A stretch of 64,000 nt of DNA from an archaeon BMS3Abin17 (lineage in GTDB: Archaea > Nanobdellota > Nanobdellia > Pacearchaeales > GW2011-AR1). Shown here in pieces: positions 33,575-60,118 of this stretch; position 1 is the stretch's first letter, and every line of letters starts with the position of its first letter. Under the pieces are notes generated by a model. The model was not told the origin of the DNA, did no database searches, and worked only from the letters and a program-made list of their open reading frames with translations. The stretch is from assembly GCA_002897655.1 (NCBI GenBank), contig BDTJ01000044.1:1605-65604 (forward strand), read 5' to 3'. Position numbers and translations under genes: made by a program.

Positions 33575-34159
33575 TTGATTATTTCCAAAAACATGCTACA
33601 CAAAGACATGCAAAAGCATGAGATTGAGGATGCACTTGCAGATAAAGGTGATTTTGTTAAGATAGAGAGATTAACTAGCTTTCTAAAAGAAGAATTACCT
33701 ATAGATATAAAGAAATTTGTTTATCTAAAACTTGCAGAGCTTTATGAAAAAACAGGAATGTTGGTTGATTCTGCAAAGATGTATGATAATGCTGCTCTTA
33801 TCTCTATTGCTTTTTCAGAAAAGATTAAGCATTATGTTAAAGAGACAGAATTGCATATCAAGGCAGGTCATTTTGACATGGCTGAAGAGTCAATGAAAAA
33901 AGCAATGGGAAATGCAAATGTAGTTGAAAAAAATGAGATTTATATTACTATTAAAGATTTTTATAAAAGGCAGGCAGAAGCATATGAGAGAGATATAAGA
34001 AGAGGGCATGCTGCAAGAATCTATGAAAAGGTATTGGAGATGAACATATCTGACTTAGAACGATTGGAGATAAGGAAAAAATTACTTGTTTTATACGAAA
34101 AACTTGGAAGATTTAAAGAATATAAGCTGTTAAAGGGATTAGACAATGGAAATCCCTAA
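33575..34159 (+). CDS. hypothetical helical (TPR-like) protein
   Basis: 194 aa, alpha-helical composition. Overlaps the next ORF by 14 nt. Confidence 0.4.
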   Translation: MIISKNMLHKDMQKHEIEDALADKGDFVKIERLTSFLKEELPIDIKKFVYLKLAELYEKTGMLVDSAKMYDNAALISIAFSEKIKHYVKETELHIKAGHFDMAEESMKKAMGNANVVEKNEIYITIKDFYKRQAEAYERDIRRGHAARIYEKVLEMNISDLERLEIRKKLLVLYEKLGRFKEYKLLKGLDNGNP

Positions 34160-34451
34160 ATCTATTAAGGTTAATACTGGTGAACAAAGAGAAGTTCAAC
34201 CAAAAATTGATGCATTTTTTAAATCAATATATGAGGATATAAGCACAAAAGATGAATGTTCATTCAATCATTCTGATTTTGAGATTAAATTACAAGGATT
34301 ATATGATTATCCTGAAACTATATTAAACGATAAAATCCATTATTGTTCTTACAAAGGGAGGGTTGTAGGAATTGTTATTGAGGCTAGAACAGAACATAAC
34401 TATGTTAATTTTGACTTTTTTAGGAAAAATTTAGAGAATCTTTTAGATTAA
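34146..34451 (+). CDS. hypothetical protein
   Basis: 101-aa ORF, translationally coupled to the upstream gene. Confidence 0.35.
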   Translation: MEIPKSIKVNTGEQREVQPKIDAFFKSIYEDISTKDECSFNHSDFEIKLQGLYDYPETILNDKIHYCSYKGRVVGIVIEARTEHNYVNFDFFRKNLENLLD

Positions 34452-34556
34452 AACAAACACAGTCCGAATAATCTCAAACTAACCGAATAGTTTTCTTTCT
34501 GTCCAAGAAGTGTACGAAAAGTAAAGGGTTAAAAATAAGGATTTCTTGAGAAATAA

Positions 34557-37500: not shown

Positions 37501-37706
37501 AAGAATTTATTAGTGAAATACAAAATAAAAATAAAGTAATGAGTATAGAAAAAGAAGCTGAGTTAATGGATTTTTTTGAAAAGAACAAAAAAGAAGTTTT
37601 AGAATTAGTTAATGAAGTTTCTAAAACAGAAAGAGAAATAGATGAGATGGTTTACAAGCTCTATGGGATAACAGACAAAGAAAAAGAGATTATTGAAAAG
37701 TCTTAA
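34557..37706 (+). CDS. Type IIG restriction-modification enzyme (MmeI-like): N-terminal PD-ExK endonuclease, gamma-class N6-adenine methyltransferase and C-terminal target-recognition region
   Basis: D81-x9-E91-x-K93 has the same spacing as the MmeI catalytic D-x9-E-x-K. MTase motif X (GVFYTPEYV), motif I (ILDSACGSGAFLI) and motif IV (NPPY). Length 1049 aa. Confidence 0.8.
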   Translation: MGKNLFNEKTIEKNIAKIEPTAKQSTASKRWIKLIETNQLQNEKSAYIEFANTILRDLLNYNINIEELKHEENYMEFLFKDSSKSNLVVFEAKGTKTKDLWAPQGRSVKIKETPVNQINYYLMHNKIPYGVLTNYKEFVLFKREEGDSKFHKIDFLEIKNNQDKLKEFIFIFSKESFEKDDTTKLYKDSIVEERNLTKEFYKLYHETRLMILKEFKESELENEICLHCTQLFLNRLMFIFFAEDTNLLDKRYFEIKLLEVLDKSSGVIDGHTNYIFGKIKSIFRELDKEIPKQIKGFNGELFKKEIDGRLSFKDYRSKPFFNEVKQSYRLDKNIELYENDKKIFNKHKNRLSKIIENILLMASFDFKSEVNVNILGHIFEQSISDIENLKEERISKRKQEGVFYTPEYVTEYICKNTIIPYLSKNGTNDINELIDEYSNNIEELEKKFKSIKILDSACGSGAFLIKATEVLFEIFEKIQFVKENYGDYEAKRGLKRKSNFKGQLTFKKWDEKDEIKNIIENNIYGVDINEESVEITKLSLFLKIARKNKKLIDLSGNIKQGNSLVSDDKIDKNLAFDWNKNFPEIMDNGGFDVVIGNPPYVFTREVEFNDKFKEYIANNYLNAKDSISKSHARQSGKINLYSLFLIKGKDLLRDNGVISFIIPNNLLRTTTYDIVRKQLLDNFDISEIVDMGTGVFEGVTASTIIIKMRKDSNKERRNKNLIEIIPNFENLRKKNKIEQINFLKNTSYAFNIVSNKSDRKLLDKIIEGCIDLGDIITIHAGGIATGKNKKGMIENWKKSEKHKPMLEGKDIKPFYPVFSERYILYEKKLLYRAREESIFLNPEKLITQRISGGLKPLVTSYDNEKYYTFNSTNTILSKNNEHSLKYILALLNSRLINWYYVSKFTNKSNLTVNISKTFLEKIPIKKISPEQQKPFIEKSDFMIDKNKKFYEIKKKFIKLVKYKYNLDKISRKLDTFYKLNFKEFISEIQNKNKVMSIEKEAELMDFFEKNKKEVLELVNEVSKTEREIDEMVYKLYGITDKEKEIIEKS

Positions 37707-38893
37707 TCTTCTTCAACATCCTTCCGTTTACTTAATGATAATCTAAAATCCCGGATAATATCAACCATCTTTTTAAGTTCATTATCAATATTCCCCCCAA
37801 CAACCTTGCTATTTAATCTCGGATAACAAATCATTGAAAGTTCTTCGTATAGTCCTTTATCCTTCATTAACTGAATAAACTTTTCTTTATTCTCACCTTC
37901 TGGCATTACAATCTTATCAAACTCTTTAACAGAACATTTCTTGTTTGAACCATAAACAATATCAACCCCAAACTGTTTTGCATATTTTATCAAATTATCT
38001 TTAAATTCTTCTTCTGCTTTTTTTAATTCTGCTTGTTTAGTTTTAACTTCTGAATATTCATCTACTAATTTAACTCCTTCATCTTCCTTGAATTTTTTAA
38101 TATCTTCAATTTTTTCTAATTCAACTTCGTGTTTAAAACTTGGGCATTGTTCTTTGTAAACACAATAATCACAAAGTGCAGATTGTTTTCTTGGAAATTC
38201 TTTAGCATTTTCAATTTCTTTTATTCTTTCAATAACATCTTGTTGTAATTTCTCCAACTGCTCATCTGTTCTTTCTGAAATAGCATCTTTGTTAAAAGCC
38301 AACATATGCCAAATCAATTTAACAGATTTAGCATCTGGAAATTTGTCTTTAACCCAAACAGAATAAAGAGCAAGTTGCCTGTCTGAATCAGCTTCTCCTT
38401 GATCCTTCATTCTTGCATTTGTTTTATAATCACAAACAAAATAATTTCCTTTATTATCACAACCTAACTTATCTATCCTAACATGCCACTGGTTTCCATC
38501 AGAAAGGGTCATTCTATCGGTTGTCTCTAATCCTAAGATTGTCATCTCTTCAAACGGTTTCATTCTTTCATAATAATGAGTAATAAACTTCTCACCCATT
38601 TTCTTATAGTTATTAGCAGTAAGTTTTTCTTTCTCTGCTTTAACAATTAGAATATCTTCAGAATAATTTTTATCCCACAAATCTCTATAAAACTTAATTA
38701 AAACATTCAAGGCAACTCTTTTCTTAAACTTCTTTAATTTATACAAATGTTCTAAAGTTTGATGAACTATCTCTCCCATAAACGCTTCTATTGTTGTAGG
38801 AACATTAACTTTAACTTTATCAATATATCTTAATTTATATTGGTAAGGACAATTTTCAAAACAAGAAACTCTGGAGTGTGAATAGGCTGTCAT
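37703..38893 (-). CDS. Cas4-like PD-(D/E)xK nuclease with a 4-Cys Fe-S cluster signature and an uncharacterised ~150-aa C-terminal extension (start set at MTAYSHSR...)
   Basis: YSHSRVSCFENCPYQYKLRY N-terminal motif. VCDYK D/ExK motif. C-terminal CDYCVYKEQC (Cx2Cx5C) combined with an N-terminal Cys, the Cas4/AddB Fe-S arrangement. Start adjusted away from the overlapping MYSQT... extension. Confidence 0.65.
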   Translation of the reverse strand: MTAYSHSRVSCFENCPYQYKLRYIDKVKVNVPTTIEAFMGEIVHQTLEHLYKLKKFKKRVALNVLIKFYRDLWDKNYSEDILIVKAEKEKLTANNYKKMGEKFITHYYERMKPFEEMTILGLETTDRMTLSDGNQWHVRIDKLGCDNKGNYFVCDYKTNARMKDQGEADSDRQLALYSVWVKDKFPDAKSVKLIWHMLAFNKDAISERTDEQLEKLQQDVIERIKEIENAKEFPRKQSALCDYCVYKEQCPSFKHEVELEKIEDIKKFKEDEGVKLVDEYSEVKTKQAELKKAEEEFKDNLIKYAKQFGVDIVYGSNKKCSVKEFDKIVMPEGENKEKFIQLMKDKGLYEELSMICYPRLNSKVVGGNIDNELKKMVDIIRDFRLSLSKRKDVEED

Positions 38894-38894
38894 T

Positions 38895-39680
38895 TTAATA
38901 TTTATCCGCTTTCTTTGGATAGATAACCCCCACAACAATATATGTTTTGAATCTATAATGTGTTCCAACAACAAAATAAAAATCTCTCTTGTTTGGGAGT
39001 ACATTAAAAAATTTATCCTTTACTTTTTCAAATACTACTTTTTCATCTTTGTATTTTCCCTGTTCCCTATATTTATCACAATTCCTATATAGTGCTATAA
39101 GCTCCCAATCCTCACACATAATTTTATGTTGGATAGGGCAAGATTCTGAGCAATTAAACTTATACGAAAAAAGATTTTTGGGAATCCATATTTTTACTGC
39201 AGACTCTCCATCAATTAATGTTGTTTGTTTTCCTTTCTCTTTAATCTTTTTATAATTTTCATTAGCCTCTTCCACAAAATCAATTAGTTTGTTAGGTTTT
39301 ATTATTCCTAAGGATACTTCTCTAGGATTTTTAGCATAAAGTTCTTCTAAAGAAATTATCTTTTGTTCTATTAATTCTTTAAGTTCTTTAAATGACGCTG
39401 GACCCAAGTCTTTAATTGTTTTTGTAATAATCTTACGACTTTCTGGTCTATGGTCAGAAGGTTCATCACTTTCAGTTTCATACTCTATCCAATTTTTCTT
39501 CTTGAAACTTTTCTCATTCCAAAATACTTCAAATGGTACAGGATATATTCTTCTTAATTCTCCCTTATCTGTTATTCCAGCTACACATACAAGATGTTCA
39601 TACTTTTTACTTACTATTGGATAAGTTTTTGTTAATACTAATAATTTTTCTTTCATTTTCATAAATTGTTTACTTTCCAA
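38895..39680 (-). CDS. hypothetical Cys-rich protein (CSESCPIQHKIMC...C cluster), middle gene of the cassette
   Basis: 261-aa ORF. Its stop lies 1 nt from the start of the nuclease gene, and it overlaps the upstream DUF488 gene by 22 nt. Confidence 0.45.
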   Translation of the reverse strand: MESKQFMKMKEKLLVLTKTYPIVSKKYEHLVCVAGITDKGELRRIYPVPFEVFWNEKSFKKKNWIEYETESDEPSDHRPESRKIITKTIKDLGPASFKELKELIEQKIISLEELYAKNPREVSLGIIKPNKLIDFVEEANENYKKIKEKGKQTTLIDGESAVKIWIPKNLFSYKFNCSESCPIQHKIMCEDWELIALYRNCDKYREQGKYKDEKVVFEKVKDKFFNVLPNKRDFYFVVGTHYRFKTYIVVGVIYPKKADKY

Positions 39681-40510
39681 CCTCTCTCCGCTAGTCGTTC
39701 AGCAATTATGCTCCTGTGACATGTTTTAAAATCTTTTTCAAAACACAACAATACTGTTTTTTTCCTTCTCGCTCTTCCTTCAATGTCTGAGATATTTTCT
39801 AAGACATCTGGGTCTTTTATATGTTTTTTATATTCTCTAAAAAATCTTTCATAATCCATGTCCTTATATAATTGATGTCTCACTTCTTTAGGAGAACCTA
39901 ATTGAGGCATATGTTTGTAAGTAATCCCAACTTCTTTTAATTTAGAACTTAGAATTGTTTTAGAAAATCCATTCTTTCTACTTAATGGAAGTTCTCTAAC
40001 ATCAATTAATTGTTGTACATTACTATCTTTAAGTTTCTTAATGAATTTTTCTATAGTGTATCCCTCATACCCAATAGTATAAATTGTATCATTTTCAGAA
40101 TTCCAAAAAAGATTGCCTCCAATCTTTATTCGTTTTAGTCCAATATCTTTTTCTAATAATCTAACCCATTTATTATTAGGGTTTTTTTGATGAAGATTTA
40201 ATTTATCCCTAATTTGTGTCCAAGTTAAACCAGCAGGATGTCTTTCAAGTATATTCTTTATAGAATCTTTAAATTCATCATAAAACATTTCTTCATCATT
40301 TTTACTTAGATTTTTTTTGGAAAGTGGTTTTAAAAACAATAAATCTTTTTTAATTTCATCTTGCAATTCAACTCCCTCTTTCCATCCTAATTGTTTTATT
40401 CTATCAGTAGGAATTACCAAAACCCATTTTACATATTTTTCATAATTAGGGTCATCCTTTTTTCTAGAAGATTGTTTTTGAAGTTTCATATCTTTTATCT
40501 TGGTACCCAT
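39659..40510 (-). CDS. DUF488-domain protein with an N-terminal ~130-aa extension (possible DNA-binding)
   Basis: C-terminal half matches the DUF488 signature (IYTIGYEG...LIDVRELP...LLCFEKDFKTCHRSIIAERL). Confidence 0.55.
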   Translation of the reverse strand: MGTKIKDMKLQKQSSRKKDDPNYEKYVKWVLVIPTDRIKQLGWKEGVELQDEIKKDLLFLKPLSKKNLSKNDEEMFYDEFKDSIKNILERHPAGLTWTQIRDKLNLHQKNPNNKWVRLLEKDIGLKRIKIGGNLFWNSENDTIYTIGYEGYTIEKFIKKLKDSNVQQLIDVRELPLSRKNGFSKTILSSKLKEVGITYKHMPQLGSPKEVRHQLYKDMDYERFFREYKKHIKDPDVLENISDIEGRARRKKTVLLCFEKDFKTCHRSIIAERLAERGWKVNNL

Positions 40511-40586
40511 TATTTAAAAGCTTATTGGTACCCACACCATATATATTTCTGGGTACCCAAATGTTTATAAAGGTCTGGGTACCCAT
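40501..40586. promoter_or_regulatory. four phased GGTACCCA boxes (24-26 nt spacing), each followed by an AT-rich TATA-like segment, in the divergent promoter between the DUF488 cassette and the transposase
   Basis: GGTACCCA at 40502, 40528, 40552 and 40578. The first copy overlaps the cassette's start codon. Confidence 0.5.
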
Positions 40587-40592
40587 TATATT

Positions 40593-41570
40593 GTGGTGAT
40601 AAGATATGACACTATGGAACAACAAACAAAAATATTCCAGAACACAGAAAACTCAAAACCAATCATAGCTTTGCAAAAGAACAAATATACTTTAGAGCAA
40701 GAAAAAGAGAGATTCATCAACAATATGTGTGATTTCATAGAACCACTCAATTTTGAGCAATTACAGGTTATGGGAAGACCAAGAGCTGATTTTAAGGGTA
40801 TAATAAAGGCAATTTTGTTGATGTCTTATAATAGCATGTCCTACAGGAGAACTCAATCAGATTTAAGAAAGATGCATGAAGAAGGATTAATTCAATATAT
40901 TCCTCCAAAAAGTACATTAAATGATTATGTTAATAATGAGAATACTAAAGGATTAATTGAAAGACTAATACAAATATCAGCGTTATTCTTTAATGAAAAT
41001 GAAGATACAACTATTTTAGATTCTACTTGGTTTGGTCAAAGAATGTATTCTGGAGGTTACAGAAAAGTTTATGATAAGAAAAATGCTCCATTGCAAAAAG
41101 TTAGAAAGCTTCATATTGCTTGTTTAAAAAATAGTAAGGTTATTGCTTATGCTAAAGCCACGGTTGGAACAAAAAATGACAGTCCTTTATTTAATGAAAT
41201 TGTCAATGCTATTGTAAAAAATGGTTTCCATATTAAAACAGTTTTGGCGGATGCTGGTTACTCAAGCAAAAACAATTATGCACTTTGTAAAGAACTTGGA
41301 ATTTTGAATGTTTTTATTGACTTCAAGAAGAATGCTACACTAAGGAGAGCTAAGAGTGATTTATGGAGAGAGAAACTTAGATTGTATAAAGAACAAAAAG
41401 AAATCTGGAATCAAACTTACAGATTTAGAGTAATTGTGGAGGGAATTTTTTCAGCAATTAAGAAAAAAAATATTAATTATCTTCGTTCTCGGAAGGAGAT
41501 TGCTCAGGATGTTGAGGTTCTTCTGAAGGCTCTGGTTTACAATTTGACGATAATTGGGAAATATTCTTAA
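40593..41570 (+). CDS. IS5/IS4-superfamily DDE transposase
   Basis: DDE triad regions ILDSTW, LADAGYSS and VEGIFSAIKK. Length 325 aa. Confidence 0.7.
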   Translation: MVIRYDTMEQQTKIFQNTENSKPIIALQKNKYTLEQEKERFINNMCDFIEPLNFEQLQVMGRPRADFKGIIKAILLMSYNSMSYRRTQSDLRKMHEEGLIQYIPPKSTLNDYVNNENTKGLIERLIQISALFFNENEDTTILDSTWFGQRMYSGGYRKVYDKKNAPLQKVRKLHIACLKNSKVIAYAKATVGTKNDSPLFNEIVNAIVKNGFHIKTVLADAGYSSKNNYALCKELGILNVFIDFKKNATLRRAKSDLWREKLRLYKEQKEIWNQTYRFRVIVEGIFSAIKKKNINYLRSRKEIAQDVEVLLKALVYNLTIIGKYS

Positions 41571-42201
41571 CTTCTTCAATTCCAGCAAAAAGAATCTTGT
41601 TATTTGTCCAATCCATCTTACAAGGAGTATAAAATCTAATTTCCTTTATTTTTGGTTCAAAATTGTCCCCTGAAATTTCTATTATTGCAAAATATCTTTT
41701 ATCTTCACAAATAAAATTTCTACCTCCTGTAGAAGAAAAAATAACTTCTTTTGTTGCACTATCAATCCAAAATAAATCACAAAATTCCCATCCCCCTTTA
41801 GGTGAAATATCTTTATTCTCTTTAAAAATAGGAATTAATTGATTAATATCTGATACTAAATTTATCCTCTCAGGGTCTATTCTAAACCCCATATCTCTTG
41901 GAGCACTAGACCATTTTAATACGTCTGGTTCATTCTTATCTAGCACATTATTTCTCTCTTCAGATTTAACAGACAACAGTTTTACCTTACAATTTCTAGC
42001 AACTGTTTTACCCTCATTAACAATTTTTATACGAAAAAGCATTCCCATTGAATTTAAAAAAGGGTAAATAGAATAAGGTTCGTAATTTCCAAATCCAATT
42101 TTTATAAGAGGTCTATCTTTCCAATCCCAAAATCTTTTTCCAAATAATGCAACAACAACAGCCAAAAAAGTTATTATTATTAAAATTACTGTTAAAACCA
42201 T
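41473..42201 (-). CDS. membrane-anchored hypothetical protein; acidic low-complexity C-terminal tail encoded within the transposase 3' region
   Basis: N-terminal TM helix followed by a soluble domain. Its last ~33 codons overlap the transposase C-terminus convergently. Confidence 0.4.
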   Translation of the reverse strand: MVLTVILIIITFLAVVVALFGKRFWDWKDRPLIKIGFGNYEPYSIYPFLNSMGMLFRIKIVNEGKTVARNCKVKLLSVKSEERNNVLDKNEPDVLKWSSAPRDMGFRIDPERINLVSDINQLIPIFKENKDISPKGGWEFCDLFWIDSATKEVIFSSTGGRNFICEDKRYFAIIEISGDNFEPKIKEIRFYTPCKMDWTNNKILFAGIEEVKNISQLSSNCKPEPSEEPQHPEQSPSENEDN

Positions 42202-46862: not shown

Positions 46863-47219
46863 TCATTCTAAACCTAAACTTATCTTAATAGCTAAATCAA
46901 CTTTATTCATGATAAGATTATCAAGATGACTTAACTTCTTAATAATTCTTCTTTTATCAATTGTTCTTATTTGATTAAGTAAAACTACAGAATCTTTTTC
47001 TAAATTTGAATCACTTTTTGATAAAATTACATTAGTTGGATATTCTTTTTCATAAACTTTAGAGGTTATAGGGGCAACAATTGTTAATGGACTAAATTTA
47101 TTTGATATGTTATTCTGGATAATAAGCGCTGGCCTAATTTTTCCTTGTTCCACTCCTTTAACTGGCTCAAAATTAACCAGAAATATATCTCCTCTTAATA
47201 TTTTTGCTACCATTCCCAA
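46863..47219 (-). CDS. mazF: MazF/PemK-family endoribonuclease toxin
   Basis: RGDIFLVNFEPVKGVEQGKIRPALII ... SPLTIVAPITS motifs. Confidence 0.8.
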   Translation of the reverse strand: MGMVAKILRGDIFLVNFEPVKGVEQGKIRPALIIQNNISNKFSPLTIVAPITSKVYEKEYPTNVILSKSDSNLEKDSVVLLNQIRTIDKRRIIKKLSHLDNLIMNKVDLAIKISLGLE

Positions 47220-47440
47220 TCTAATTCAGCATCAATAGCTTCCAATTCTTTGTTAATTTTTAGGCTATCTTCTGCCATTGCCTTGCACCCTTCTATTAAT
47301 AATTTCTCTTGTTTTCTTTTTTGCTCTTCTGCAACTTTCATTAAATTCAAGATAATCTGCTCGTAAGTTTCTTTATTTGTCTTTAATCTATCTAAAGCAT
47401 TTTTCACATTTTCATTAAGCTGGATTGTTGTTACCATCAT
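47207..47440 (-). CDS. putative antitoxin partner of MazF
   Basis: 77-aa helical ORF overlapping mazF by 13 nt, in the upstream position. Confidence 0.5.
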   Translation of the reverse strand: MMVTTIQLNENVKNALDRLKTNKETYEQIILNLMKVAEEQKRKQEKLLIEGCKAMAEDSLKINKELEAIDAELDWEW

Positions 47441-49061: not shown

Positions 49062-52000
49062 TTAAACCTTCAAAGTAATTATCTTTGAGACTCCGTCATG
49101 CATGCTTACACCATAAAGATTTGAGGCATTTGTAATCACTTCGTCATTGTGGGTTATTACTATATACTGGCCTTTTTGCATGTATTTTCTGAGAAGGCCT
49201 GCAAGTCTCTCAGAATTTCTTTTATCCAATGCTGCATCAATCTCATCAAGTATGTAAAAACAATACGGGCTGTATTCCTGAATTGCAAAGATAAGGGATA
49301 ATGCCACAATAGTCTGTTCTCCTCCTGAAAGAGAGGTAACATCAAAGTATTTTCCATGCCCTGTCTTGACAATTATATTCACCCCCCCTTCAAAAGGGTC
49401 TTTTCTATTTTCCAATTCTAATGAAACCCGCCCCTTTGTGCTTAATTGAGAGAAATTCCTTGAGAAGGTCTCATTTAATGAATCAAGGGTTTTAAAGAAA
49501 GTCTTTTTCTTTTTAATATCAATCTCATGAATAATCTTCATGATTCCTTCTTTTTCCTTGTTGATTATCTCTACTTTTTCTTTTATCAAGTCATATTCTT
49601 TTTTTATTGAATCATAGACTTCTAATGAACGCAGATTAACGGTTCCAATTTTTGATAATATTTCTTGTGTTCTTTCCAGCTTATGAATAAGAGACTCTTT
49701 TGTTGCTTTTATTATCTCAACATTTGGATATCCCAGCATATCTGTCTCTAAATTCTCAATTGCTGCATCAATCTTTGCTTTTTCTATTTTTAATAAATTA
49801 GTATCCTGCTCAAAATTATGAATTGAATTTTGCCTGGTCAAAATAAAAGACTCAAAATCCCTTATTTTCTTCTGCAGGCCTTCTCTTTCAGAGATTAGTT
49901 TTTGGAATTTTCTGGTAAGGGCCTCTTCCTTGCCTTTTTTATCTTCTAAAAAACTCTCTTTTTCTTCAATACTCTCCTTTAGGTCAGAAACATCCTCTTT
50001 GATATCTTCTTCATCACTAGTTAATTGTTTTAAAGCTGCTTTTGAACGGTCTAATTCTCTTTTCTTAAATGAAGTCTCTGAATCCAAGGTCTCTTTGCTT
50101 CTCATAGATATCTCCTGAATCTCTATTCTTGCAGTCTCATATTTTTGCTCCAGATTAGAATTCCTGTCAGATTTGCTTTCAAGAGATTTTCTTCTTTTTT
50201 CTAATTCAATCATCTCTTTCTTAGAGTCCTCAATTTTTTCATGCAACATTTTTATCTGCTCTTTTTTATCATTGATTCCGAATATTTTAATCTGGTCAGA
50301 CTTTCTACTAGATATCTCTGAATCTATTTCATCTATCTTTTTGTTTAAGATTGCTTTGCTATTGCCTATTTGCTTAAACTCTTTTTCTGATTCTTCTATT
50401 TGCTTTTTAAGATGGTTTATCCTTGGATTAACTTCTTTATGAATTGAAGAAATATGGTCTTTAGTTATCTTGCTTTTGCACAATGGACAAATGTCCATTT
50501 TTGAGATATTTTCCCTAATTTTATTTTGCTTGTCTATTTCATAGCTATTTGTGTAAGATATTTTTTCAAGCTCTTTTTCTCTTTTTTCCAAGTTTTCAAT
50601 CTTTTGTTTATTATTAGATAAGGAAACTTTAAGAGAGTCTAATTTGCCTGAATCTGTGTTTTTGTCAAATAATTCCCTTGTAAGAACCTCTATTTGCTTG
50701 ATTAAATAATCAGACTCTGTTTTATAACTCTGCAAAAGAGAGTTTTTGTCCTCCATTCTCTCTTTAATTGATTTTAATTCTGACTTAGTCATATAAAACT
50801 CTTTTCTTTGCTTTTCCAGATTATCAAGCTCTTGTTTTTTCTCTTCTATGTCTTTTTGCTTTTTTGAAGCAGATGATTTAGAACTCTGCAGTTCTTTTAT
50901 TTCTGATTCTAAATCCCTTATTTTTTGAGCCAGATCTATTCTTTGATTTTCAACTTCAGAGAGCTTTCTTTCAGAATTATCCAACCTTACATTTAAACCA
51001 GCTAATTCTGCTCTTAAATTAGCTATTTCCTGGTTCAATTTTTCCTGCTCTATTCCAGTAGATTTTTGAATATTTTGGTTTATTGAACTTATTTTTGATT
51101 CAAAGCTTTCAATAGTAACCCTTGTATTTGTTATTATTTTTTTTATCTTATTTATCTCATTATCTTTTTCCAGAATTCGCTTGTCCATCTTTTCTCTTTC
51201 TCTTTTTCTATTTGTTAAATCAGAATGAATTATGCTTGCTCTGTATCTTTTGGCATCTTTTTCAAGTTTCTTAAATCTCAAGGCCTCCTGCCTTTCTCTT
51301 TCAAGATTATTCAAATATGCTGTTCTCTCCCTTAGTATTGATGAAACTTCTTTTAATTTATCCCCTGTTCTTTCTAATTCTTTCAGAGACTTTTGCTTTC
51401 TTACCTCATATATTGAGATTCCAGAAACCTCTTCTATTATTTTTCTTCTCTCTTCTGTATGCATTCTTACAAAATTCTGAATCTCTCCCTGCAAGATAAT
51501 ATTAAATCCATTAGGGTCTATTCCTGCCTGTGCCAATAAGGTCAACACCTCTTGTCTTGTCTTTGTCTCATTATTTATCCTGTAGATACTCTGCCCGTTT
51601 TTTCTTACAATCCTCTTTATTGAAATCTCATTATTATCTATAGAAAAAATCTTATCAGAGTTATCAAAAACAATCTCAACTGATGCTTCTTTTGCAGGAG
51701 ACAATGCCTTTGTTCCCAGAAATATCAGGTTTTTTGCTTTTGCTGCCCTCATTGACTTGATTGAGAGTCTTCCCAATACAAAACACAAAGCATCTGTTAT
51801 GTTTGAATTATGGACAAAGATATTATTAGCCAAAAAGTTGTGATGTTCATCTACACATAAATCATAAACCCACCCTTCTCCATTTATCTCGCTTATATCT
51901 GTTATTTCGTCCCAGAAAATATCAGAATACGCCAAAAAATTTAATTTTTTTATTAATTCAGAGTTTCCTTTAAACAATTGTTTTGACAATAACTGAAGAC

Positions 52001-53516
52001 CATTTCTTGAAGGAAAGCATTGATTATAACAGTATGCCTCAAGGAGGGGAAATTGCATCTTTGTATGTTTTACATTAATCTTTAATTCCTTAGTTATGTC
52101 TTTAACTAAGTTGTTGATTCCTATTAAATCTGTATTCGGATTGCTCTTCTTTTTTAAGTAATCTTTTATCCTCTGTCTTTTAACTTGGTGAATTAATTGA
52201 ATACTGTCGTCAAATATTCTGAAGTTATCAACCCCAGTAATTATGATTGTTTTGTATTTTCCTGTGAATCCTGATGATTTTATTCCCTTAATTTGGTCTC
52301 TTGTTGAAAACAGAATTCCTAATCTTAGCAGGCAAGTCTCTATGCCTTGTGCTAATGGTGCGCTTTTAGTTGTAATTTCTATGGAACTTTTAGAAACATA
52401 TCCATCCCCGCAGTAAAGTCCGTTAAGTAATTCCGATACCTCCTTACCTGATGAATGTTTTAATAAGATATTTGATATTTTTTTCCCTGAAGTATTAGAT
52501 GCCATCCCAAGTTTTGACAATATCTTTTTTAGTGGTTCAGAATAAATTATTACATCCCAGCAATTAGGCTTGTATTCCCTGACTAAAGGTTTCTTGTTAA
52601 ATAACTTTTCAACCAGAGTTATATAATCATCCACAATATTTTTATCCCCATTAGTAAACCATATCTGACTTGATTCAGCCAGCCTGCCTTCAGCTAAAAG
52701 ATAACCAAAAAACCTTGAAAATTCCGGAGAATTTGTAAAATTAAAACTTGTTTTTTTCCCATTAGAAATCAACTCATTAATCAAATTGGTTATCTCTAAA
52801 TCTGATAAATTCGCGTATCTGAGTATTCTAATCAAATAACAAAAATTAATTGATTGCTTATCCAATAATCCCTTAATCACATAATAAGAGATGCCTATTT
52901 TCTCTGCTAATTGCTTCCAGATTAGATTATCTTTTATTGACCTCAAAATTAAAGAATATTCCTCTTTATAGGGCACATAAATCCCATCATTTTCACTAAT
53001 CAAACTTAAAAGTTCTGTAAAGGTTTTATCTTTGGTCTCAAAATTTAATGCCCTCGGGACAGCAATCCTAACTCCCTGCTTTAATTCGTCAGCTCTTGCT
53101 TCTACAATCTGATTGTTTTTTAATATGAATAAAGGGTGATATTTTGTTGTTTTTACTGCTCTTCCAGACCTGGTTTTTATTGAAAGAATCTTCTCAGGGG
53201 ATGTTCTTTTAACAAATGATTTTACCTTTGTTCTTTCTGTTTTAAGGGTCTTTAAATTCAGGCTAATGACTTCTAAACCATCCCCTGGGATTAAAAAACC
53301 ATCTTCTGTTTTTACTGCTTTGTTCAATCTGGAATTAATTATATTGTCTATTCTCTCACTAGTGCCATCTCCAAGAGTTACAATAGAATCTCCGGTCAGG
53401 CATTTCCCACTTCCATTAGGGCCAAGAACTACATTTATCCCCTGATTAAAAGGTATTTCTGTCTTTCTGATAAAGCTTTTAAATCCGTGCATCACCAGTT
53501 TTTTGATATATGGCAT
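49062..53516 (-). CDS. rad50: Rad50/SbcC-family ATPase with zinc hook, interrupted by an intein in the Walker A motif
   Basis: GPNGSGK|C...HN|SNITDALCFVLG. CPLC zinc hook in mid coiled-coil. LSGGE signature, Walker B (ILDEIDAALD) and H-loop. The extein is 952 aa. Confidence 0.8.
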   Translation of the reverse strand: MPYIKKLVMHGFKSFIRKTEIPFNQGINVVLGPNGSGKCLTGDSIVTLGDGTSERIDNIINSRLNKAVKTEDGFLIPGDGLEVISLNLKTLKTERTKVKSFVKRTSPEKILSIKTRSGRAVKTTKYHPLFILKNNQIVEARADELKQGVRIAVPRALNFETKDKTFTELLSLISENDGIYVPYKEEYSLILRSIKDNLIWKQLAEKIGISYYVIKGLLDKQSINFCYLIRILRYANLSDLEITNLINELISNGKKTSFNFTNSPEFSRFFGYLLAEGRLAESSQIWFTNGDKNIVDDYITLVEKLFNKKPLVREYKPNCWDVIIYSEPLKKILSKLGMASNTSGKKISNILLKHSSGKEVSELLNGLYCGDGYVSKSSIEITTKSAPLAQGIETCLLRLGILFSTRDQIKGIKSSGFTGKYKTIIITGVDNFRIFDDSIQLIHQVKRQRIKDYLKKKSNPNTDLIGINNLVKDITKELKINVKHTKMQFPLLEAYCYNQCFPSRNGLQLLSKQLFKGNSELIKKLNFLAYSDIFWDEITDISEINGEGWVYDLCVDEHHNFLANNIFVHNSNITDALCFVLGRLSIKSMRAAKAKNLIFLGTKALSPAKEASVEIVFDNSDKIFSIDNNEISIKRIVRKNGQSIYRINNETKTRQEVLTLLAQAGIDPNGFNIILQGEIQNFVRMHTEERRKIIEEVSGISIYEVRKQKSLKELERTGDKLKEVSSILRERTAYLNNLERERQEALRFKKLEKDAKRYRASIIHSDLTNRKREREKMDKRILEKDNEINKIKKIITNTRVTIESFESKISSINQNIQKSTGIEQEKLNQEIANLRAELAGLNVRLDNSERKLSEVENQRIDLAQKIRDLESEIKELQSSKSSASKKQKDIEEKKQELDNLEKQRKEFYMTKSELKSIKERMEDKNSLLQSYKTESDYLIKQIEVLTRELFDKNTDSGKLDSLKVSLSNNKQKIENLEKREKELEKISYTNSYEIDKQNKIRENISKMDICPLCKSKITKDHISSIHKEVNPRINHLKKQIEESEKEFKQIGNSKAILNKKIDEIDSEISSRKSDQIKIFGINDKKEQIKMLHEKIEDSKKEMIELEKRRKSLESKSDRNSNLEQKYETARIEIQEISMRSKETLDSETSFKKRELDRSKAALKQLTSDEEDIKEDVSDLKESIEEKESFLEDKKGKEEALTRKFQKLISEREGLQKKIRDFESFILTRQNSIHNFEQDTNLLKIEKAKIDAAIENLETDMLGYPNVEIIKATKESLIHKLERTQEILSKIGTVNLRSLEVYDSIKKEYDLIKEKVEIINKEKEGIMKIIHEIDIKKKKTFFKTLDSLNETFSRNFSQLSTKGRVSLELENRKDPFEGGVNIIVKTGHGKYFDVTSLSGGEQTIVALSLIFAIQEYSPYCFYILDEIDAALDKRNSERLAGLLRKYMQKGQYIVITHNDEVITNASNLYGVSMHDGVSKIITLKV
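51807..53402 (-). other. intein (532 aa) with LAGLIDADG homing-endonuclease domain, inserted between K38 and S of the Rad50 P-loop
   Basis: Begins with Cys and ends with HN followed by Ser. Two LAGLIDADG motifs (FFGYLLAEGRL, LNGLYCGDGYV). The flanks reconstitute GPNGSGKSN. Confidence 0.75.
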
Positions 53517-53665: not shown

Positions 53666-54366
53666 TTAAAACTTCAACTTCCTCTGCTCTAATTTCTCAA
53701 ATGCCCTCTTCCATGTGCTCCAGGTCCTCCTGAATATTCCCTCTTTTTGATGTTTATGCGCATATTTCTCAAGGAACTTAATTGTGGCTGGGTCAGAAGT
53801 ATATCCAGATCCAATCTCATCCCCATATCTTTCTTTAATCTTGTCCATTTCTCTTTCTCTAACACTTTTTGCCAAAATTGATGCAGCAGAAACAGCAAGG
53901 TGATTTTTATCTGCCTTGTGTTCACAGGAAATTTCTAAATTTGAAAGATTCTTTATTTTTGTCTTTAAGAAATCCTGCCACTTTGAAATTGTTGGGGAAG
54001 GGCAATCAACAATTACCTTTACTTTTTTATACCCTTTATTGATTTTGTTTATTATCTTGGCACACATAATTGCTTCTAACTCATTTAGTTTTGTGCCATT
54101 AACACTTGTGCTATCTATTTCATTTGGATATACTTTTATTATCTCAAAGGTTTCTGCTTTTTCTTTGATTATTTTTTCCAAGAATTCTCTTCTTTTCTGA
54201 GTTAATTGCTTACTGTCCCTTACACCAAGTCTTTTGAATTCTTTTTCAACTTTTTCATCAATCAAACACCCTGCCAAAACCATTGGGCCAATGACTGGAC
54301 CTTAAGGCGAACAATAATATAATAAAAATTATACTACAATTCTCTACCTGCGTCGTCAATGCCCAA
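53666..54366 (-). pseudogene. rnhB: RNase HII gene disrupted by a 41-nt stop-containing insertion (54302-54342) that separates the catalytic GIDDAGR segment (TTG start at 54366) from the rest (GPVIGPMVLAG...)
   Basis: Removing nt 54302-54342 joins ...GIDDAGR to GPVIGPM... in frame. The body has the RNase HII motifs DSKQL and AVSAASILAK. Confidence 0.5.
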
Positions 54367-54368
54367 GA

Positions 54369-55403
54369 TTAAATTGCAAGAATGCTCTTTTTTACTGGCA
54401 ATTTTATCCATTTTCCATCTTTTTTATTCCTCCTTATTAAATTTAGTTTCTCAAGTTCTTTGAGCCTTCTAAATGAAGCCTTCCAACAAACATTAAATTT
54501 CTTTGCAAGCTCTGCAGTCTGTTTAGGTCTATCTAAGAAAAGTAGATATCCCTTTTTAAGCTTTGATATAATAATGAGATTCTTATCATTTGTCCAATAA
54601 TCAATGCTTCCCACTCTAAAATTATGTACTCTCCTTTGTTTTTTTAATAAAACCAGTACATCCTGTGTCCTTGCAAATGATCTTTTAAATTTATTTGATA
54701 AATCTCGCGTTGTTAAGGGTTTTTCTAAAATAGTATAAATTTTCTTAATTAAATAATGTTTTTCATAATGTTCTTGTTTAAAATCATTATAAACTCTCCA
54801 AAATTTCTCTTTTTTTAAGGGATGTAAGTCTGCTAATTTTAATTTTGCAAAAACATCCCAATTAAATTTCTTAGTAATTACATAATTTCTATTTCCTGTC
54901 TCAAATGAAAAACTTATATTTAAAGAATTCAATAAATCATCTATAAACTTTTTTCTTTCTTTCTGAGATACTCTTAGAACACGGACACTTTTTCTGCCAA
55001 CATGTACATTACCTTCTCCAGCAAAAAATCCTTTTAATATATTTGGGAAGAATTCTTTCTTATCCAAAAAAAATTTTACAATCTTCTTCCACTCCTTAAC
55101 CATCTCAACTGAAGCAAATCTAAGAATAAAGAAAGGTTTTATTGCCTTTTTATGAACATAATACTTTACTACACAGTTTTTATAATGTATTTTAACCTTT
55201 TTTTTGTCTTTAGAGTAAACATATATTCTAGGATTATAATTATGTTTGTAAAATATCTTATTAATTGTTCTATAAAATAAATTTACTAAATCCCAACAAT
55301 TATTTGTGAATGTAATCTCTGATTTAGTTTTGTTATCTCCTTCTGCTAACCATAAACCAACACATTTTGCGATATTTTCATTTGGGGCTAATAACCTGTC
55401 CAT
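54369..55403 (-). CDS. free-standing double-motif LAGLIDADG endonuclease-like protein with C-terminal winged-helix domain
   Basis: VGLWLAEGD and LKGFFAGEGNV motifs. C-terminal HTH-like ELAKKFNVCWKASFRRLKELEKLNLIRR. Its stop abuts the rnhB start. Confidence 0.55.
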   Translation of the reverse strand: MDRLLAPNENIAKCVGLWLAEGDNKTKSEITFTNNCWDLVNLFYRTINKIFYKHNYNPRIYVYSKDKKKVKIHYKNCVVKYYVHKKAIKPFFILRFASVEMVKEWKKIVKFFLDKKEFFPNILKGFFAGEGNVHVGRKSVRVLRVSQKERKKFIDDLLNSLNISFSFETGNRNYVITKKFNWDVFAKLKLADLHPLKKEKFWRVYNDFKQEHYEKHYLIKKIYTILEKPLTTRDLSNKFKRSFARTQDVLVLLKKQRRVHNFRVGSIDYWTNDKNLIIISKLKKGYLLFLDRPKQTAELAKKFNVCWKASFRRLKELEKLNLIRRNKKDGKWIKLPVKKSILAI

Positions 55404-55909: not shown

Positions 55910-56689
55910 AAAAATTAAACAAAAGTTATCTCTTCTTTTTCTTTTTTGGAAACAAATGGCTCAGTGCTCCAATAGCCATCGCTACTATTATGTAAGTCCA
56001 GTTATGCATCCACAAACCATATCCAAGAACAACAAATGCAACTAAATGAAATAATTGAGTCCATGGATTTCTATGCATATCCACTATTTTGTCAAACATT
56101 TTCCACCCCCTTTTGATAGGTATATCAACGAATTATTGTTTAAAAATCTAATTGAAAAAGCTTTAAGGTAAATTATTAGAAATTAAATTTTTTCTCCATT
56201 AACAATATATCCATACCACTTGCTGAAAGATATCCCCTCCTATGACGAAGAACCTTCTGGCATTAATTCTTTTGGGAATATCATTGTACGCCTTAAAAAA
56301 TCTTCTATAGATAACCGATTAGCTTCACAATCATTCCAAGAAACTAACCTGACCAGCCATCTCCATTTTACACGGGCTATAGCCAGCTCTCAAAGCACAC
56401 TGGTTTCCTTCAGAATCCATAAAAAAAGTCCTTCTCATATATGAAAATCCATAAAAAGGACACTTAGTTCTTGTTTTTATATCTGATAGATTAAGTATAT
56501 CATTCATAGATTATTTAAGATTGTTATGTTTAAAAAAATAATTGTGATTAGAAGATAAGCTTTAAAAACAATCAGATTATCATATTCATAAGTTGCTGAG
56601 CGCAATCATGTATTGCGGGAGGTTACTAACAAGTACTATAAAATGGCACGAATAGAAGATAGTAAAATTAAATTTGTAGGAGGATAAAA

Positions 56690-56875
56690 ATGAAAGGAAA
56701 AGTTAAATTTTTCAATAGAACAAAGGGATTCGGATTTATAGCTGGAGAAGATAGCAAAGAATATTTTGTTCATGAGTCTGGGATAAAGCAAGGACCTATA
56801 GACGAAAACGATGATGTTACTTTTGACGTTGAAGAAGGAGATAGAGGACCAAAAGCAGTTAATGTTAAAAAATAA
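56690..56875 (+). CDS. csp: cold-shock protein (CspA family, bacterial type)
   Basis: [19 protein letters not shown]1 and VHESGI RNP2 motifs. Length 61 aa. Confidence 0.8.
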
Positions 56876-57345
56876 GATTGAATCTTAATCCTGTTTTTAG
56901 ATGCTGAGATTCTTTTATAATCATTTATTTTTTATTAAATTGTTGGTTTCTGTAAAGATGATATAGTTCAGCCCAGAATCTTTTTAATTAATTTAATGTT
57001 ATAATCTAATGGAAACAAGACAAGGAATTGATGTGAATCCAATTTGGAATTTGATGACTTGCCTTTTTTATGAATGTTGCGATAAAAAAGAAGAAAGAGA
57101 AAAAACTTTAATATTAGGAAAGTGTATGTATAACCCAAGTGTATTCAAATGTGAGGAATTTCAAAAAAGAAGTAAAGGGGTAGTTTATGACTTAGATTAT
57201 CTATAATGGTAATTCTTAGATATCTTCCTTATTTATAATATGATTATACCACCTTCTAAAAGGCACTCCTTCCCAATCTTGAGTTCCTTTAGGCCTTAGT
57301 TCATTTGGGAAAATAGAAGCTATTTCTAAAGCATCCCCAAAAACT

Positions 57346-57466
57346 GCATCAAAAAGTCCTTGTGTTTTACCGCACCTTAAAAGGTGCGGTTTGTTTGGAC
57401 TTTAGGATGTCCAAGGATTCATCCACACACTAAAGTGTGTGGTTTTCTCCAGGAATCCCTGGCATA
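57346..57466. repeat. 121-nt hairpin-rich repeat, copy B
   Basis: Identical to copy C over ~115 nt and an inverted match to copy A. Confidence 0.8.
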
Positions 57467-57749
57467 ATTAAATGAATGATTAAGATTACAATCTTCCCAG
57501 TTAATCTTTTGTTTATTCATTTCCATAATACAAGGATGTAACTATGAGTGCACACTGATTTCCCTGCGAATCTCTAAGACTTCCTTGATTAAAGGAAAAT
57601 CCATAAAAAGGGCATCTTGGTCTTGTTTTAAAAGTCATGTGAAGCAAAAAATGTTTAGGTTTAAATAAATAATTGTAACAAACAATAACCTTTAAAACTT
57701 CATAATTTATTCTATATTCATGCCTTATCATAGGCATGACCTTTTCAAG

Positions 57750-57951
57750 GCCTCGATCGCATAATGGTATTGCACGAGATTGCTAATGCCCAACTTTCCT
57801 TACCGGGAGAACGAAAGTTCTCAGGGCCCAAAGAACCATGGGTTCTTAGGGGGAAAGAAAGTTCGGCGCTCAAAGAACCACATCAGGCTCTGCGAGCATA
57901 GTAAACATCTCGATCCTTCGGGATGCGCAGGTTCGATTCCTGCTCGAGGCG
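57750..57951 (+). tRNA. tRNA-Ser (anticodon GCT) with a 121-nt intron at the canonical 37/38 position
   Basis: Acceptor GCCTCGA/TCGAGGC plus discriminator G. Anticodon stem CGAGA/TCTCG split by the intron (57786-57906). Long variable arm ATCCTTCGGGATG. T-arm GCAGG-TTCGATT-CCTGC. Confidence 0.7.
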
Positions 57952-57989: not shown

Positions 57990-58619
57990 ATGATAAACTC
58001 CTTAAAATCTCTAAGAATCAGTAAATTAGTTGGAAATCTCTCTAAAACAGTATTTAGTGAAGGTTTGCCAGATGAGACTATTCCTTTTGAAGATTTGAAA
58101 AGGCTAAATTTTGATTTAGATATAGATCCATCTCTTTGGAGGAAGTATAAGAGAAGTCATAATTTTAGATACTCTGGAGCTTCAACAGCAGAACATTTGA
58201 CAATGGGCTTAATGAGATTATTATTTGAAAATAAAAATTCTCCAGATATAAATTATTCTACATTGAGAGAAGTATTATCAGAAAAAGATTCAACAAGGAT
58301 TGCTGTTTTAAATGCTCATGAAGGGAATGTTAAAGGTAATTGGATTTATTCTTTTAAGGGGTCTCAGGCCCCAGTCCAGAAGTGGATAGATGAAATTAGT
58401 TCTAGGAATTTGAAATCCAGAAAAAAATATGGGGCGTTATTTGTATGCTGCTGTAATGGAGACTCATTAATTCCTGATTATACAGAAATACCTATATTTT
58501 ATCTTAAAGGAATATTTGAAAGTGGAGGCAAATATCAAAAAGTCCTTGTGTTTTACCGCACCTTAAAAGGTGCGGTTTGTTTGGACTTTAGGATGTCCAA
58601 GGATTCATCCACACACTAA
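57990..58619 (+). CDS. hypothetical protein; start moved downstream of the tRNA, and the 3' end runs into repeat copy C
   Basis: The tracked ORF 57780.. begins inside the tRNA intron. The first Met after the tRNA is used instead. Confidence 0.3.
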   Translation: MINSLKSLRISKLVGNLSKTVFSEGLPDETIPFEDLKRLNFDLDIDPSLWRKYKRSHNFRYSGASTAEHLTMGLMRLLFENKNSPDINYSTLREVLSEKDSTRIAVLNAHEGNVKGNWIYSFKGSQAPVQKWIDEISSRNLKSRKKYGALFVCCCNGDSLIPDYTEIPIFYLKGIFESGGKYQKVLVFYRTLKGAVCLDFRMSKDSSTH

Positions 58620-58652
58620 AGTGTGTGGTTTTCTCCAGGAATCCCTGGCATA
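58532..58652. repeat. 121-nt hairpin-rich repeat, copy C
   Basis: Direct repeat of copy B, 1.19 kb downstream. Confidence 0.8.
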
Positions 58653-58660
58653 AAAATTAA

Positions 58661-59254
58661 TTACTCAATAACAACAAAGTTGTTTCTTCCTGATTTCTTT
58701 GCTTTATAGAGTGCCTTATCCACTCTAAGCTTCATTTTTCTTTTTGTATCGTTTTTACCTCTAAACTGAGTTACCCCCCCACTTACAGTAAGACCATGTT
58801 TTTTTAGAACAGAATCTGAATTAATAACTTTTCTTAATCTTATAGTTAATTTTCTTGCCTTTACTAAATTTGTCGCCGGAAGCAGAATAATAAACTCTTC
58901 TCCCCCAAATCTTGCAAGAATATCTGGTTTTCTTATGTGTCTTTTTAAGGCACTTGAAAGATTCCCTAATAACTCATCTGCTCTAATATGCCCATAAGTG
59001 TCATTTATTTTCTTAAAAAAATCAATATCAATTATTATTAAAGATAAATCTTCTTTTGTTCTCTTGGCTCTCTCAATTCCAAGGTCAAAGACATTTTCAA
59101 AAAATTTACTGTTATACAACCCTGTTTTTTCATCATGAGTTGCCTCTTCATACAGCAAGGAAATAGATTCCATTATTACTTCAAATAATTCTTCAACCTT
59201 TTTCCTAAATTTTGGATCTAAAGAAGATATCCTCCTCTTTATTTTTCTATCCAT
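58661..59254 (-). CDS. stand-alone GGDEF-domain diguanylate cyclase (GGEEF active-site variant)
   Basis: DEKTGLYN, LIIIDIDFFKKINDTYGH, RFGGEEF, TVSGGV and ADKALYKAKKSGRN motifs span the whole GGDEF fold. Length 197 aa. Confidence 0.85.
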   Translation of the reverse strand: MDRKIKRRISSLDPKFRKKVEELFEVIMESISLLYEEATHDEKTGLYNSKFFENVFDLGIERAKRTKEDLSLIIIDIDFFKKINDTYGHIRADELLGNLSSALKRHIRKPDILARFGGEEFIILLPATNLVKARKLTIRLRKVINSDSVLKKHGLTVSGGVTQFRGKNDTKRKMKLRVDKALYKAKKSGRNNFVVIE

Positions 59255-59287
59255 TTAATATAAAGAGATAATTATTATTTAAAGGTT

Positions 59288-60118
59288 TCATTTAGCAACA
59301 TCACTTGTTTTTTTGTATCTAACATAAAGCTTGTCAAGAATATCTATAATTCTTTTCCTTTCTTCTGCAATACCAAGCCCTTTCCAGTCAAGAATTGCAA
59401 AATCAACTTCTTCTTGTGTTTTGTCTATTGCCTCTCTAATCATCTCTTCTGTTAATGGCAAGGCATATCCGGGGATTATATGGGAAATAGCAACATTTGA
59501 ATTTAATTGTATTTTGTTAAAATTCGGGCAGTAGTGCGGTCCACCAATTCCAATAGCAACCTCATTATATGGATTTTGATTGAATCCTTTGATTATATCT
59601 TTTATTGTTACTGCAATAACAAAACCAGCCCTATTATCTCTCCACTCATTTTCTGTTGAACCAATTTCTATGAAAATACATGGTTTATCAATTAAAGGGC
59701 CGTGATGAGTGCATTCAAGAGTAACTTTGTAATCTTTTAAATTATGTTCTTTGACATTTTTGTTCAGTTTTTCAAATATTTGTTTTTGAAATGATGCAGA
59801 GGTCTTAGATACTCTTCCAGATACCCCTCCAAAATCTGCATTTCTCCAGTTCCCAGGAGCATGAACAGAGAGTGTTCTCTCGTTTGTCACTGACTTGTGC
59901 CTTGAAGCAAATATGACAAAATCATATTTATTGATTTTTTCTTTGTCGATTCCCTCATCATAGATTATCTCTTTTTCAGTTAAATAAAAATCAAAATCAG
60001 GCTCATCTGTCTGCATTGCTGAAACCAATGGATTTTTTTTAAATTGAGATAACTGAGTTGTTATGTTTATTCCTGCCCTATCCAGCTTGCTTGCAATTAT
60101 TAGATATTTTTTATACAT
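59288..60118 (-). CDS. dtdA: D-aminoacyl-tRNA deacylase, archaeal type
   Basis: FASRHKS, HAPGNW, ECTHHGP, FIEIGSTENEW, GIGGPHYCP and DWKG blocks match the DtdA family. Confidence 0.8.
   Translation of the reverse strand: MYKKYLIIASKLDRAGINITTQLSQFKKNPLVSAMQTDEPDFDFYLTEKEIIYDEGIDKEKINKYDFVIFASRHKSVTNERTLSVHAPGNWRNADFGGVSGRVSKTSASFQKQIFEKLNKNVKEHNLKDYKVTLECTHHGPLIDKPCIFIEIGSTENEWRDNRAGFVIAVTIKDIIKGFNQNPYNEVAIGIGGPHYCPNFNKIQLNSNVAISHIIPGYALPLTEEMIREAIDKTQEEVDFAILDWKGLGIAEERKRIIDILDKLYVRYKKTSDVAK

Follow-up and report, generated by a model that had tools for sequence, protein, structure and literature searches.

A minimal GGDEF protein with the features of a diguanylate cyclase, encoded at a conserved chromosomal locus of Pacearchaeota-type DPANN archaea

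Results

A stand-alone GGDEF gene in an archaeal setting

A window of 64,000 nucleotides (nt) from contig BDTJ01000044.1 of the archaeon BMS3Abin17, the whole stretch of DNA analyzed here, carries on its minus strand a stand-alone gene for a GGDEF domain protein of 197 amino acids (aa), the putative diguanylate cyclase that is the subject of this report (58661-59254, ATG start). The assignment draws on Pfam, TIGR00254, a structure model from AlphaFold2 (AF2), and Foldseek. Directly upstream lies a gene for DtdA, the archaeal-type D-aminoacyl-tRNA deacylase (59288-60118, minus strand; PF04414, E = 4.2e-60). On the other side, 700 nt from the GGDEF gene and convergent with it, is a tRNA-Ser(GCU) gene (57750-57951, plus strand; Rfam tRNA, 40.3 bits, E = 2.6e-6) with an intron of ~123 nt in the anticodon loop. 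This tRNA was detected by Rfam and missed by ARAGORN, and a spurious open reading frame (ORF) call of 279 aa overlaps its 5' portion. Farther downstream, the gene for RNase HII (53666-54283, minus strand) serves as a synteny anchor; in a related locus, L086, the identical gene carries the Pfam annotation RNase_HII. Elsewhere the window holds RNA polymerase subunits of the Rpb2/Rpb1 type, S12, S7, EF-2, and EF-1alpha. The polymerase subunits, the two elongation factors, DtdA, and the intron-bearing tRNA together bear out the archaeal assignment made in an original prediction, which was drawn up from the sequence of the window.

Residues 38 to 192 of the protein (58679-59143) match the Pfam GGDEF family PF00990 along its entire profile (positions 1 to 161 of 161; E = 8.9e-38; 130 bits against a cutoff of 23.8), and TIGR00254 matches as well (E = 2.9e-45; 154 bits against a cutoff of 37.4). 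The complete GGDEF domain and intact GGEEF site that had been read from the sequence at the outset were thus recovered, with the active-site motif at residues 117 to 121 (58892-58906). We aligned 30 members of the protein family to which this sequence belongs (mean column identity, 76%), and the GGEEF motif was invariant in all 30. The same was true of D76, D78, N84, D93, R108, D111, the whole R115-F-G-G-E-E-F121 segment, K186, and R190. In an alignment with PleD, D76 corresponds to D327 (metal), E119 and E120 to E370 and E371 (catalysis and metal), N84 and D93 to N335 and D344 (guanine), and K186 and R190 to K442 and R446 (phosphates). That alignment also places R108-K-P-D111 (58922-58933), five residues before GGEEF, in the register of the PleD inhibitory I-site R359-A-I-D362, with R139 aligned to the secondary I-site residue R390. 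The RxxD motif for which the original prediction had advised a check is therefore present.

Ahead of the GGDEF domain there are only ~37 residues, which are predicted to form one helix, and no sensory domain is found, as had been claimed. The AF2 model (pLDDT, 90), analyzed with DSSP, has a helix at residues 14 to 39 followed by the GGDEF fold. This amphipathic helix (59138-59215) is a putative dimerizing stalk. It is preceded by an L12-D13-P14-x-F16 motif that is invariant across the aligned family and is itself marked by the invariant positions L23, S30, S32, L34, Y35, A38, and T39. Conservation of the N-terminal segment (LDPxF, S30, S32, L34, Y35, A38, and T39) is much stronger than a generic coiled coil would require.

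Foldseek returned PleD, SiaD, WspR, and DgcB as the best matches of the AF2 model, with DgcR also in this group. The matches that extended over the whole chain were structures made of a stalk plus a GGDEF domain, namely, SiaD (7e6g; TMq, 0.84), a coiled-coil GGDEF form of DgcB (6ttr; TMt, 0.81 to 0.85), and the constitutively dimeric fusion GCN4-WspR (3i5c), and the AF2 helix superposes on the stalks of all three.

A family of short GGDEF proteins among DPANN archaea

A search of 5.8 billion proteins found one entry with 100% identity, named Candidatus Pacearchaeota archaeon, together with at least 119 further clusters of 188 to 208 aa (mostly 195 to 197) at 59 to 67% identity; among the matches listed, the lowest scores were still ~260 bits. 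The entries come from metagenome-assembled genomes (MAGs) labeled Pacearchaeota, Woesearchaeota, or Nanoarchaeia, and databases already name family proteins "GGDEF domain-containing protein." Approximately 15 to 20 more short, single-domain relatives of 193 to 233 aa, at 42 to 58% identity, were present among 50%-identity representatives. All those inspected retain R-x-x-D and RFGGEEF (RFGGEEI in one case); the divergent short relative P0134 lies on a contig of 1.2 kb, and its context is uninformative.

When species-representative genomes were scanned, 15 loci matched over the full protein length at 47 to 64% identity. Below them came a sharp fall to bacterial GGDEF proteins at ≤45% identity, most of which matched in the domain only and the nearest of which belong to unrelated phyla. 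On IMG/VR viral contigs there was no family member, only domain-level matches at ≤40% identity. Two of the 15 contigs, L004 (DATKUW010000087.1) and L009 (DATJPO010000045.1), are labeled Bacillota and Omnitrophota. Both carry archaeal DtdA, GGDEF, and RNase HII genes arranged as in the window and 56 to 66% identical to their counterparts there, so mis-binning of DPANN contigs is probable.

In a neighbor-joining tree of 105 GGDEF domains, 159 of 200 bootstrap replicates recovered a bacterium-free split that holds the 22 sequences from archaeal loci together with 11 short relatives. The search for a donor lineage by similarity and phylogeny, which had been suggested with the original prediction, gave a divided answer: the family stands apart from the sampled bacterial GGDEF domains, and the tree contains no stable bacterial sister group.

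The breadth of this family bears on whether the protein could be an inactive regulator that binds GTP or cyclic di-GMP (c-di-GMP), like degenerate GGDEF receptors. Its conserved N-terminal segment could serve as a protein interaction surface, and no partner enzymes were seen. Degenerate receptors, however, lose the GG(D/E)EF motif or the metal ligands, whereas here all 30 aligned members share the catalytic residues without exception, and the divergent short members that were inspected retain them. Such conservation would be expected only under selection for catalysis, and we regard an inactive regulator as quite improbable.

Conserved gene order around the GGDEF gene

Among related loci with enough flanking sequence, 12 of 14 have DtdA directly upstream of the GGDEF gene on the same strand, and in nine related loci RNase HII (56 to 69% identity) follows a few kilobases past it. 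Contigs of 370 to 623 kb share the gene order of the window, ArgRS-TrmB-(class I aminoacyl-tRNA synthetase)-TP_methylase-...-DtdA-GGDEF-tRNA-...-RNase HII-SMC-PCMT-...-Toprim, and convergent tRNAs of 81 nt occur just downstream of the GGDEF gene in loci L003, L010, and L083. Mean pairwise distances are 0.39 for GGDEF, 0.36 for DtdA, and 0.34 for RNase HII, meaning that the GGDEF gene evolves at roughly the pace of these housekeeping neighbors. The distances of GGDEF and DtdA are correlated (Mantel r = 0.57, P = 0.03), also when the two most divergent loci are left out (r = 0.51, P = 0.005).

The interval between the GGDEF and RNase HII genes varies from 0.4 to ~4.4 kb among relatives, and on account of this difference in length we consider it an insertion-prone spot. 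Within this variable stretch, the window has two paralogous small ORFs of 58 aa (56331-56507, minus strand) and 74 aa (57513-57737, minus strand) that share the motif CPFYGFS...GNQCAL, as well as a Cys-rich ORF of 65 aa (57009-57206). The 58-aa ORF had no Pfam or PHROG match, and the 74-aa ORF had no PHROG or PADLOC match.

The identical protein is present on 11 contigs from several independent assemblies, and the places shown have the same neighbor genes. The original prediction had set down beforehand what would speak against an archaeal gene at this position, namely, a chimeric or contaminated contig or a break in GC content or codon usage. What was found is a locus shared by independent assemblies, across which GC is flat, with a GGDEF gene of 30.6% GC (window mean, 32.3%; GC at third codon positions of the gene, 22.7%) and average codon usage (z = +0.17 among 40 window genes). 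The neighborhood is one of housekeeping genes with no defense-island or phage signal. PADLOC matched neither the GGDEF protein nor its neighbors, and PHROGs gave only two marginal matches, of unassigned function (E ~0.006 to 0.007), both for a 344-aa ORF.

Promoter and expression signals

A TATA-like box, TTTAAATA (59276-59283, minus strand), starts 29 nt upstream of the ATG, within the 33-nt spacer that separates DtdA from the GGDEF gene. Of 16 family loci, 11 have the pattern TT[TA]A[AT][AT][AT]A beginning at -29 or -28, and three more have near matches in the same place, against a background of 2% for a TATA-like octamer at random positions of the same loci. Two loci, L004 and L008, have a GGAGG sequence and lack the box. 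The same geometry of TATA box and start codon was also seen at several other genes of the window. Because this spacing leaves no space for a 5' leader, the GGDEF gene likely has a promoter to itself and gives a leaderless mRNA, as is usual in archaea. We also considered an operon of DtdA and GGDEF and rejected it: the pairing is conserved, but the conserved TATA box in a spacer of 33 to 137 nt indicates a separate promoter. No functional link between the two genes is claimed.

The 120-nt repeat and recent transfer

The original prediction drew attention to a mobile-looking repeat of 121 nt beside the gene. The repeat is real and does adjoin the gene, and its length is 120 nt. Two exact copies occupy 57348-57467 and 58534-58653 on the plus strand, and 7 nt separate the end of the latter from the GGDEF stop codon. 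A third copy (11780-11898, minus strand) shows four differences. The identical copies bracket the tRNA-Ser gene, the 74-aa ORF, and a 209-aa ORF with no assigned function. The repeat is GC rich and sharp ended and has a two-domain predicted RNA fold (-48.7 kcal/mol; z = -6.5), with which, in our own reading, all four differences of the third copy would be compatible. Neither terminal inverted repeats nor target duplications were seen, no Rfam family matched, and no exact 30-mer match was found in metagenome contigs. The flank of the IS200-like element at 18163-18603 resembles the repeat by eye, a resemblance that is not significant; blastn-short found no significant similarity between the two.

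The implied connection between repeat and gene did not survive comparison with relatives, since the repeat is absent from 82 of 82 related loci. Mobilization of the GGDEF gene by the repeat was therefore rejected, as related loci with conserved synteny lack it. The repeat is separate from the GGDEF system and does not explain the presence of the gene; it could be a family of small noncoding RNA genes or a hairpin-type mobile element.

Could the GGDEF gene nevertheless have arrived recently from a bacterium, or belong to a contig that is chimeric or contaminated? The great majority of GGDEF domains are bacterial, a copy of the repeat, the possible vehicle, ends within a few nucleotides of the stop codon, and two related contigs carry the labels Bacillota and Omnitrophota. 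Yet the gene sits between an archaeal DtdA and an intron-bearing tRNA with flat GC and average codon usage, the same locus recurs in independent assemblies, and synteny is kept in relatives that are free of the repeat. Both "bacterial" contigs look mis-binned, given their archaeal DtdA and RNase HII, the top bacterial matches are domain-only matches at ≤45% identity, and IMG/VR viral contigs gave no family member. Recent transfer or chimerism is thus largely refuted, and we give it only the slightest chance of being correct. The bacterial acquisition put forward in the original prediction accordingly fails as a recent or isolated event, considering the synteny, the codon usage, the TATA box, the separate grouping of the family, and the independent assemblies; as an ancient event it holds up better, and a bacterial origin of the family in the distant past is likely.

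Other features of the window

The SMC gene (49062-53516, minus strand) is split by an intein with a LAGLIDADG homing endonuclease domain. Separate from this intein, the 344-aa ORF noted above (54369-55403) has a weak LAGLIDADG match. A low-GC island at 34000-41600 (22 to 29% against ~32%) holds an MmeI-like type IIL restriction-modification enzyme (34557-37706), a PD-(D/E)XK nuclease, a DUF488 protein, and a DDE transposase (40593-41570), and it was probably acquired horizontally. Archaea usually have split A'/A'' genes for RNA polymerase subunit A; in this window the subunit is encoded by a single ORF of 1,162 aa (22979-26467, plus strand) that spans Rpb1 domains 1 to 5.

Several genes have a bacterial flavor: an NrdR-type repressor (12014-12451, plus strand) upstream of ribonucleotide reductase, a CspA-type cold shock protein (56690-56875, plus strand), and a Fic/DOC protein (9673-10590, plus strand). 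Two toxin-antitoxin-like pairs were called by eye. One, resembling HicB/HicA (17441-17879), adjoins the IS200-like Y1 transposase at 18163-18603, and the other resembles MazF/PemK (46863-47440).

Discussion

Taken as a whole, the evidence makes it quite probable, in our judgment, that the gene is native to the chromosome of a Pacearchaeota-type DPANN archaeon, has been inherited vertically, and encodes a minimal diguanylate cyclase. The 197-aa protein itself is best explained, from its residues and domain layout, as a "coiled-coil stalk plus GGDEF" enzyme that would be subject to product inhibition.

Comparison with characterized enzymes places the protein close to a well-known class and also marks where it departs from that class. 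PleD/WspR-type cyclases (1w25, 2v0n, and 3bre) share its fold, its catalytic and guanine-binding residues, and its RxxD motif at 31 to 38% identity, and PleD matches the 197-aa protein with a phmmer E value of ~4e-29. The archaeal protein differs from them in having a helix of ~26 residues in place of REC input domains and, at the level of the gene, a predicted archaeal TATA promoter. The closest likeness in architecture is to the coiled-coil GGDEF form of DgcB, GCN4-WspR, and SiaD, which also have ~195 aa and a single stalk helix followed by the GGDEF domain (TMt, 0.75 to 0.85). Native DgcB and WspR, however, have extra domains that the archaeal protein lacks, and the LDPxF motif is found in the archaeal family only. 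The NCBIfam model for SiaD (NF038266) matches with an E value of 2.3e-42, yet at 145 bits against an equivalog cutoff of 290; the archaeal protein falls below every equivalog cutoff, so neither SiaD nor DgcB is its orthologue. Where SiaD has siaABC operon partners, the archaeal locus has DtdA and a tRNA, and no SiaC-like partner was identified. A far more distant relation is to the palm domain of Cas10/Cmr2, which shares the cyclase/polymerase palm fold (a weak PF22335 match of 17.9 bits against a cutoff of 27), but the archaeal GGDEF locus has no CRISPR context and no PADLOC match.

How such an enzyme might work can be sketched from these comparisons. A TATA box of its own would direct transcription of the gene into a leaderless mRNA, and the N-terminal helix (residues ~14 to 39) may form a parallel coiled-coil stalk that joins two GGDEF domains. 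GTP-Mg2+ would be held by D76, E119, and E120, with the guanine read by N84 and D93 and the phosphates contacted by K186 and R190; the residues are present, and the roles given to them are carried over from PleD. The GGDEF dimer would then condense two GTP molecules into c-di-GMP, and binding of c-di-GMP at the RxxD I-site (R108 and D111, with R139) may feed back to cap its level. As there is no sensor domain, input would come from outside the protein's own domains, through transcription, GTP supply, or a partner that docks on the conserved N-terminal segment, as SiaC does on SiaD. Conservation of that segment beyond coiled-coil needs leaves room for a docking partner, which we offer as a suggestion only.

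Several points weigh against the proposal of a native, vertically inherited cyclase. Co-divergence of the GGDEF gene with its neighbors is modestly supported, a grade that reflects the lack of correlation between GGDEF and RNase HII distances (r = 0.03), and support for the bacterium-free split drops to 57 of 200 bootstraps once the most divergent short members are added. Cyclase activity and its product are read from residues, and dimerization is proposed from the N-terminal helix of the AF2 model. The signaling circuit is also incomplete within the window and the related loci examined. Consistent with the original prediction, a Pfam search of the window's ORFs of ≥120 aa and of 10 small ORFs found no EAL, HD-GYP, or PilZ domain, and none of the three appears in the Pfam lists for the ±10-kb flanks of five related loci. 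Rfam detected no c-di-GMP riboswitch (RF01051 or RF01786) in the window of 64 kb or in the 144 kb covered by seven related loci. Finally, a 2023 review of archaeal second messengers describes c-di-GMP as undetected in archaea and diguanylate cyclases as almost exclusively bacterial (PMC10249747); c-di-GMP assays in archaea covered Haloferax and Sulfolobus only (PMC8646023).

One possibility raised by the missing partners is that the enzyme makes another nucleotide, such as 3',3'-cyclic GMP-AMP (cGAMP), cyclic di-AMP, or linear pppGpG. The window and related loci showed neither a canonical effector nor a canonical phosphodiesterase for c-di-GMP, and GGDEF enzymes of altered specificity do exist (Hallberg 2016, as cited in PMC10249747). 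The Hypr GGDEF cGAMP synthases of the GacA/Bd0367 type share the GGDEF fold, but they have Ser at the position of PleD D344, where the archaeal family has the invariant Asp D93. This Asp argues against a Hypr-type synthase; N84 is invariant as well, and the intact RxxD I-site suits feedback by c-di-GMP. A different product is therefore unlikely, in our estimation.

It has also to be asked whether the product might act outside the cell, being exported or delivered by contact to manipulate a bacterial host or neighbor rather than serving as an internal messenger. The failure to see internal effectors in the examined sequence is compatible with this idea. It is, however, speculation only; the gene lists for the flanks of the GGDEF locus contain no transporter or secretion gene, and an I-site that limits accumulation fits an internal set point at least equally well. 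Like a change of product, export has a small likelihood.

Setting these alternatives beside the proposed native cyclase, we can extend the latter one step further, with much less confidence. c-di-GMP may be a genuine ancestral second messenger of Pacearchaeales and their relatives, made by one minimal cyclase under housekeeping-level constraint and read and degraded by components unrelated to EAL, HD-GYP, PilZ, or riboswitches. We hold this broader scenario only tentatively and think it somewhat less probable than its opposite. If it were true, new archaeal effector classes would be expected, or the use of c-di-GMP in interaction between symbiont and host, and a cyclase would have been kept in genomes well under 1 Mb.

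The premise of the original prediction that c-di-GMP components are essentially absent from archaea agrees with reviews, which still say so (PMC10249747, PMC5847659, and PMC10086821). Galperin et al. (2018) knew of a single archaeal GGDEF domain detected by then, in Methanocella arvoryzae (CAJ37382), and archaeal GGDEF hits were treated as possible contamination in this earlier census (PMC5847659). By its description, the Methanocella protein is a single sporadic case, in contrast to the large syntenic DPANN family described here. According to a single sentence in Braun et al. (2021), BLAST returns >300 GGDEF hits in archaea, with Asgard and DPANN MAGs accounting for many (PMC8646023), and a groundwater study counts diguanylate cyclases in ultrasmall prokaryotes with archaea and bacteria pooled (PMC9938205). 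A full-text literature search on GGDEF and c-di-GMP in DPANN lineages returned no paper describing the ~196-aa family. According to Römling (2022), GGDEF proteins "need to be confirmed in archaeal contigs" (PMC10086821); for one lineage, this locus provides such confirmation.

The enzyme class is well known, and what deserves notice is the setting: a conserved, syntenic, and apparently active cyclase that has native expression signals, belongs to the core chromosome of a major lineage of DPANN archaea, and has no recognizable reader or eraser nearby. Its discovery raises the question of what reads c-di-GMP in organisms that seem to be without the known readers, and it makes archaeal use of this messenger directly testable on a soluble protein of 197 aa.

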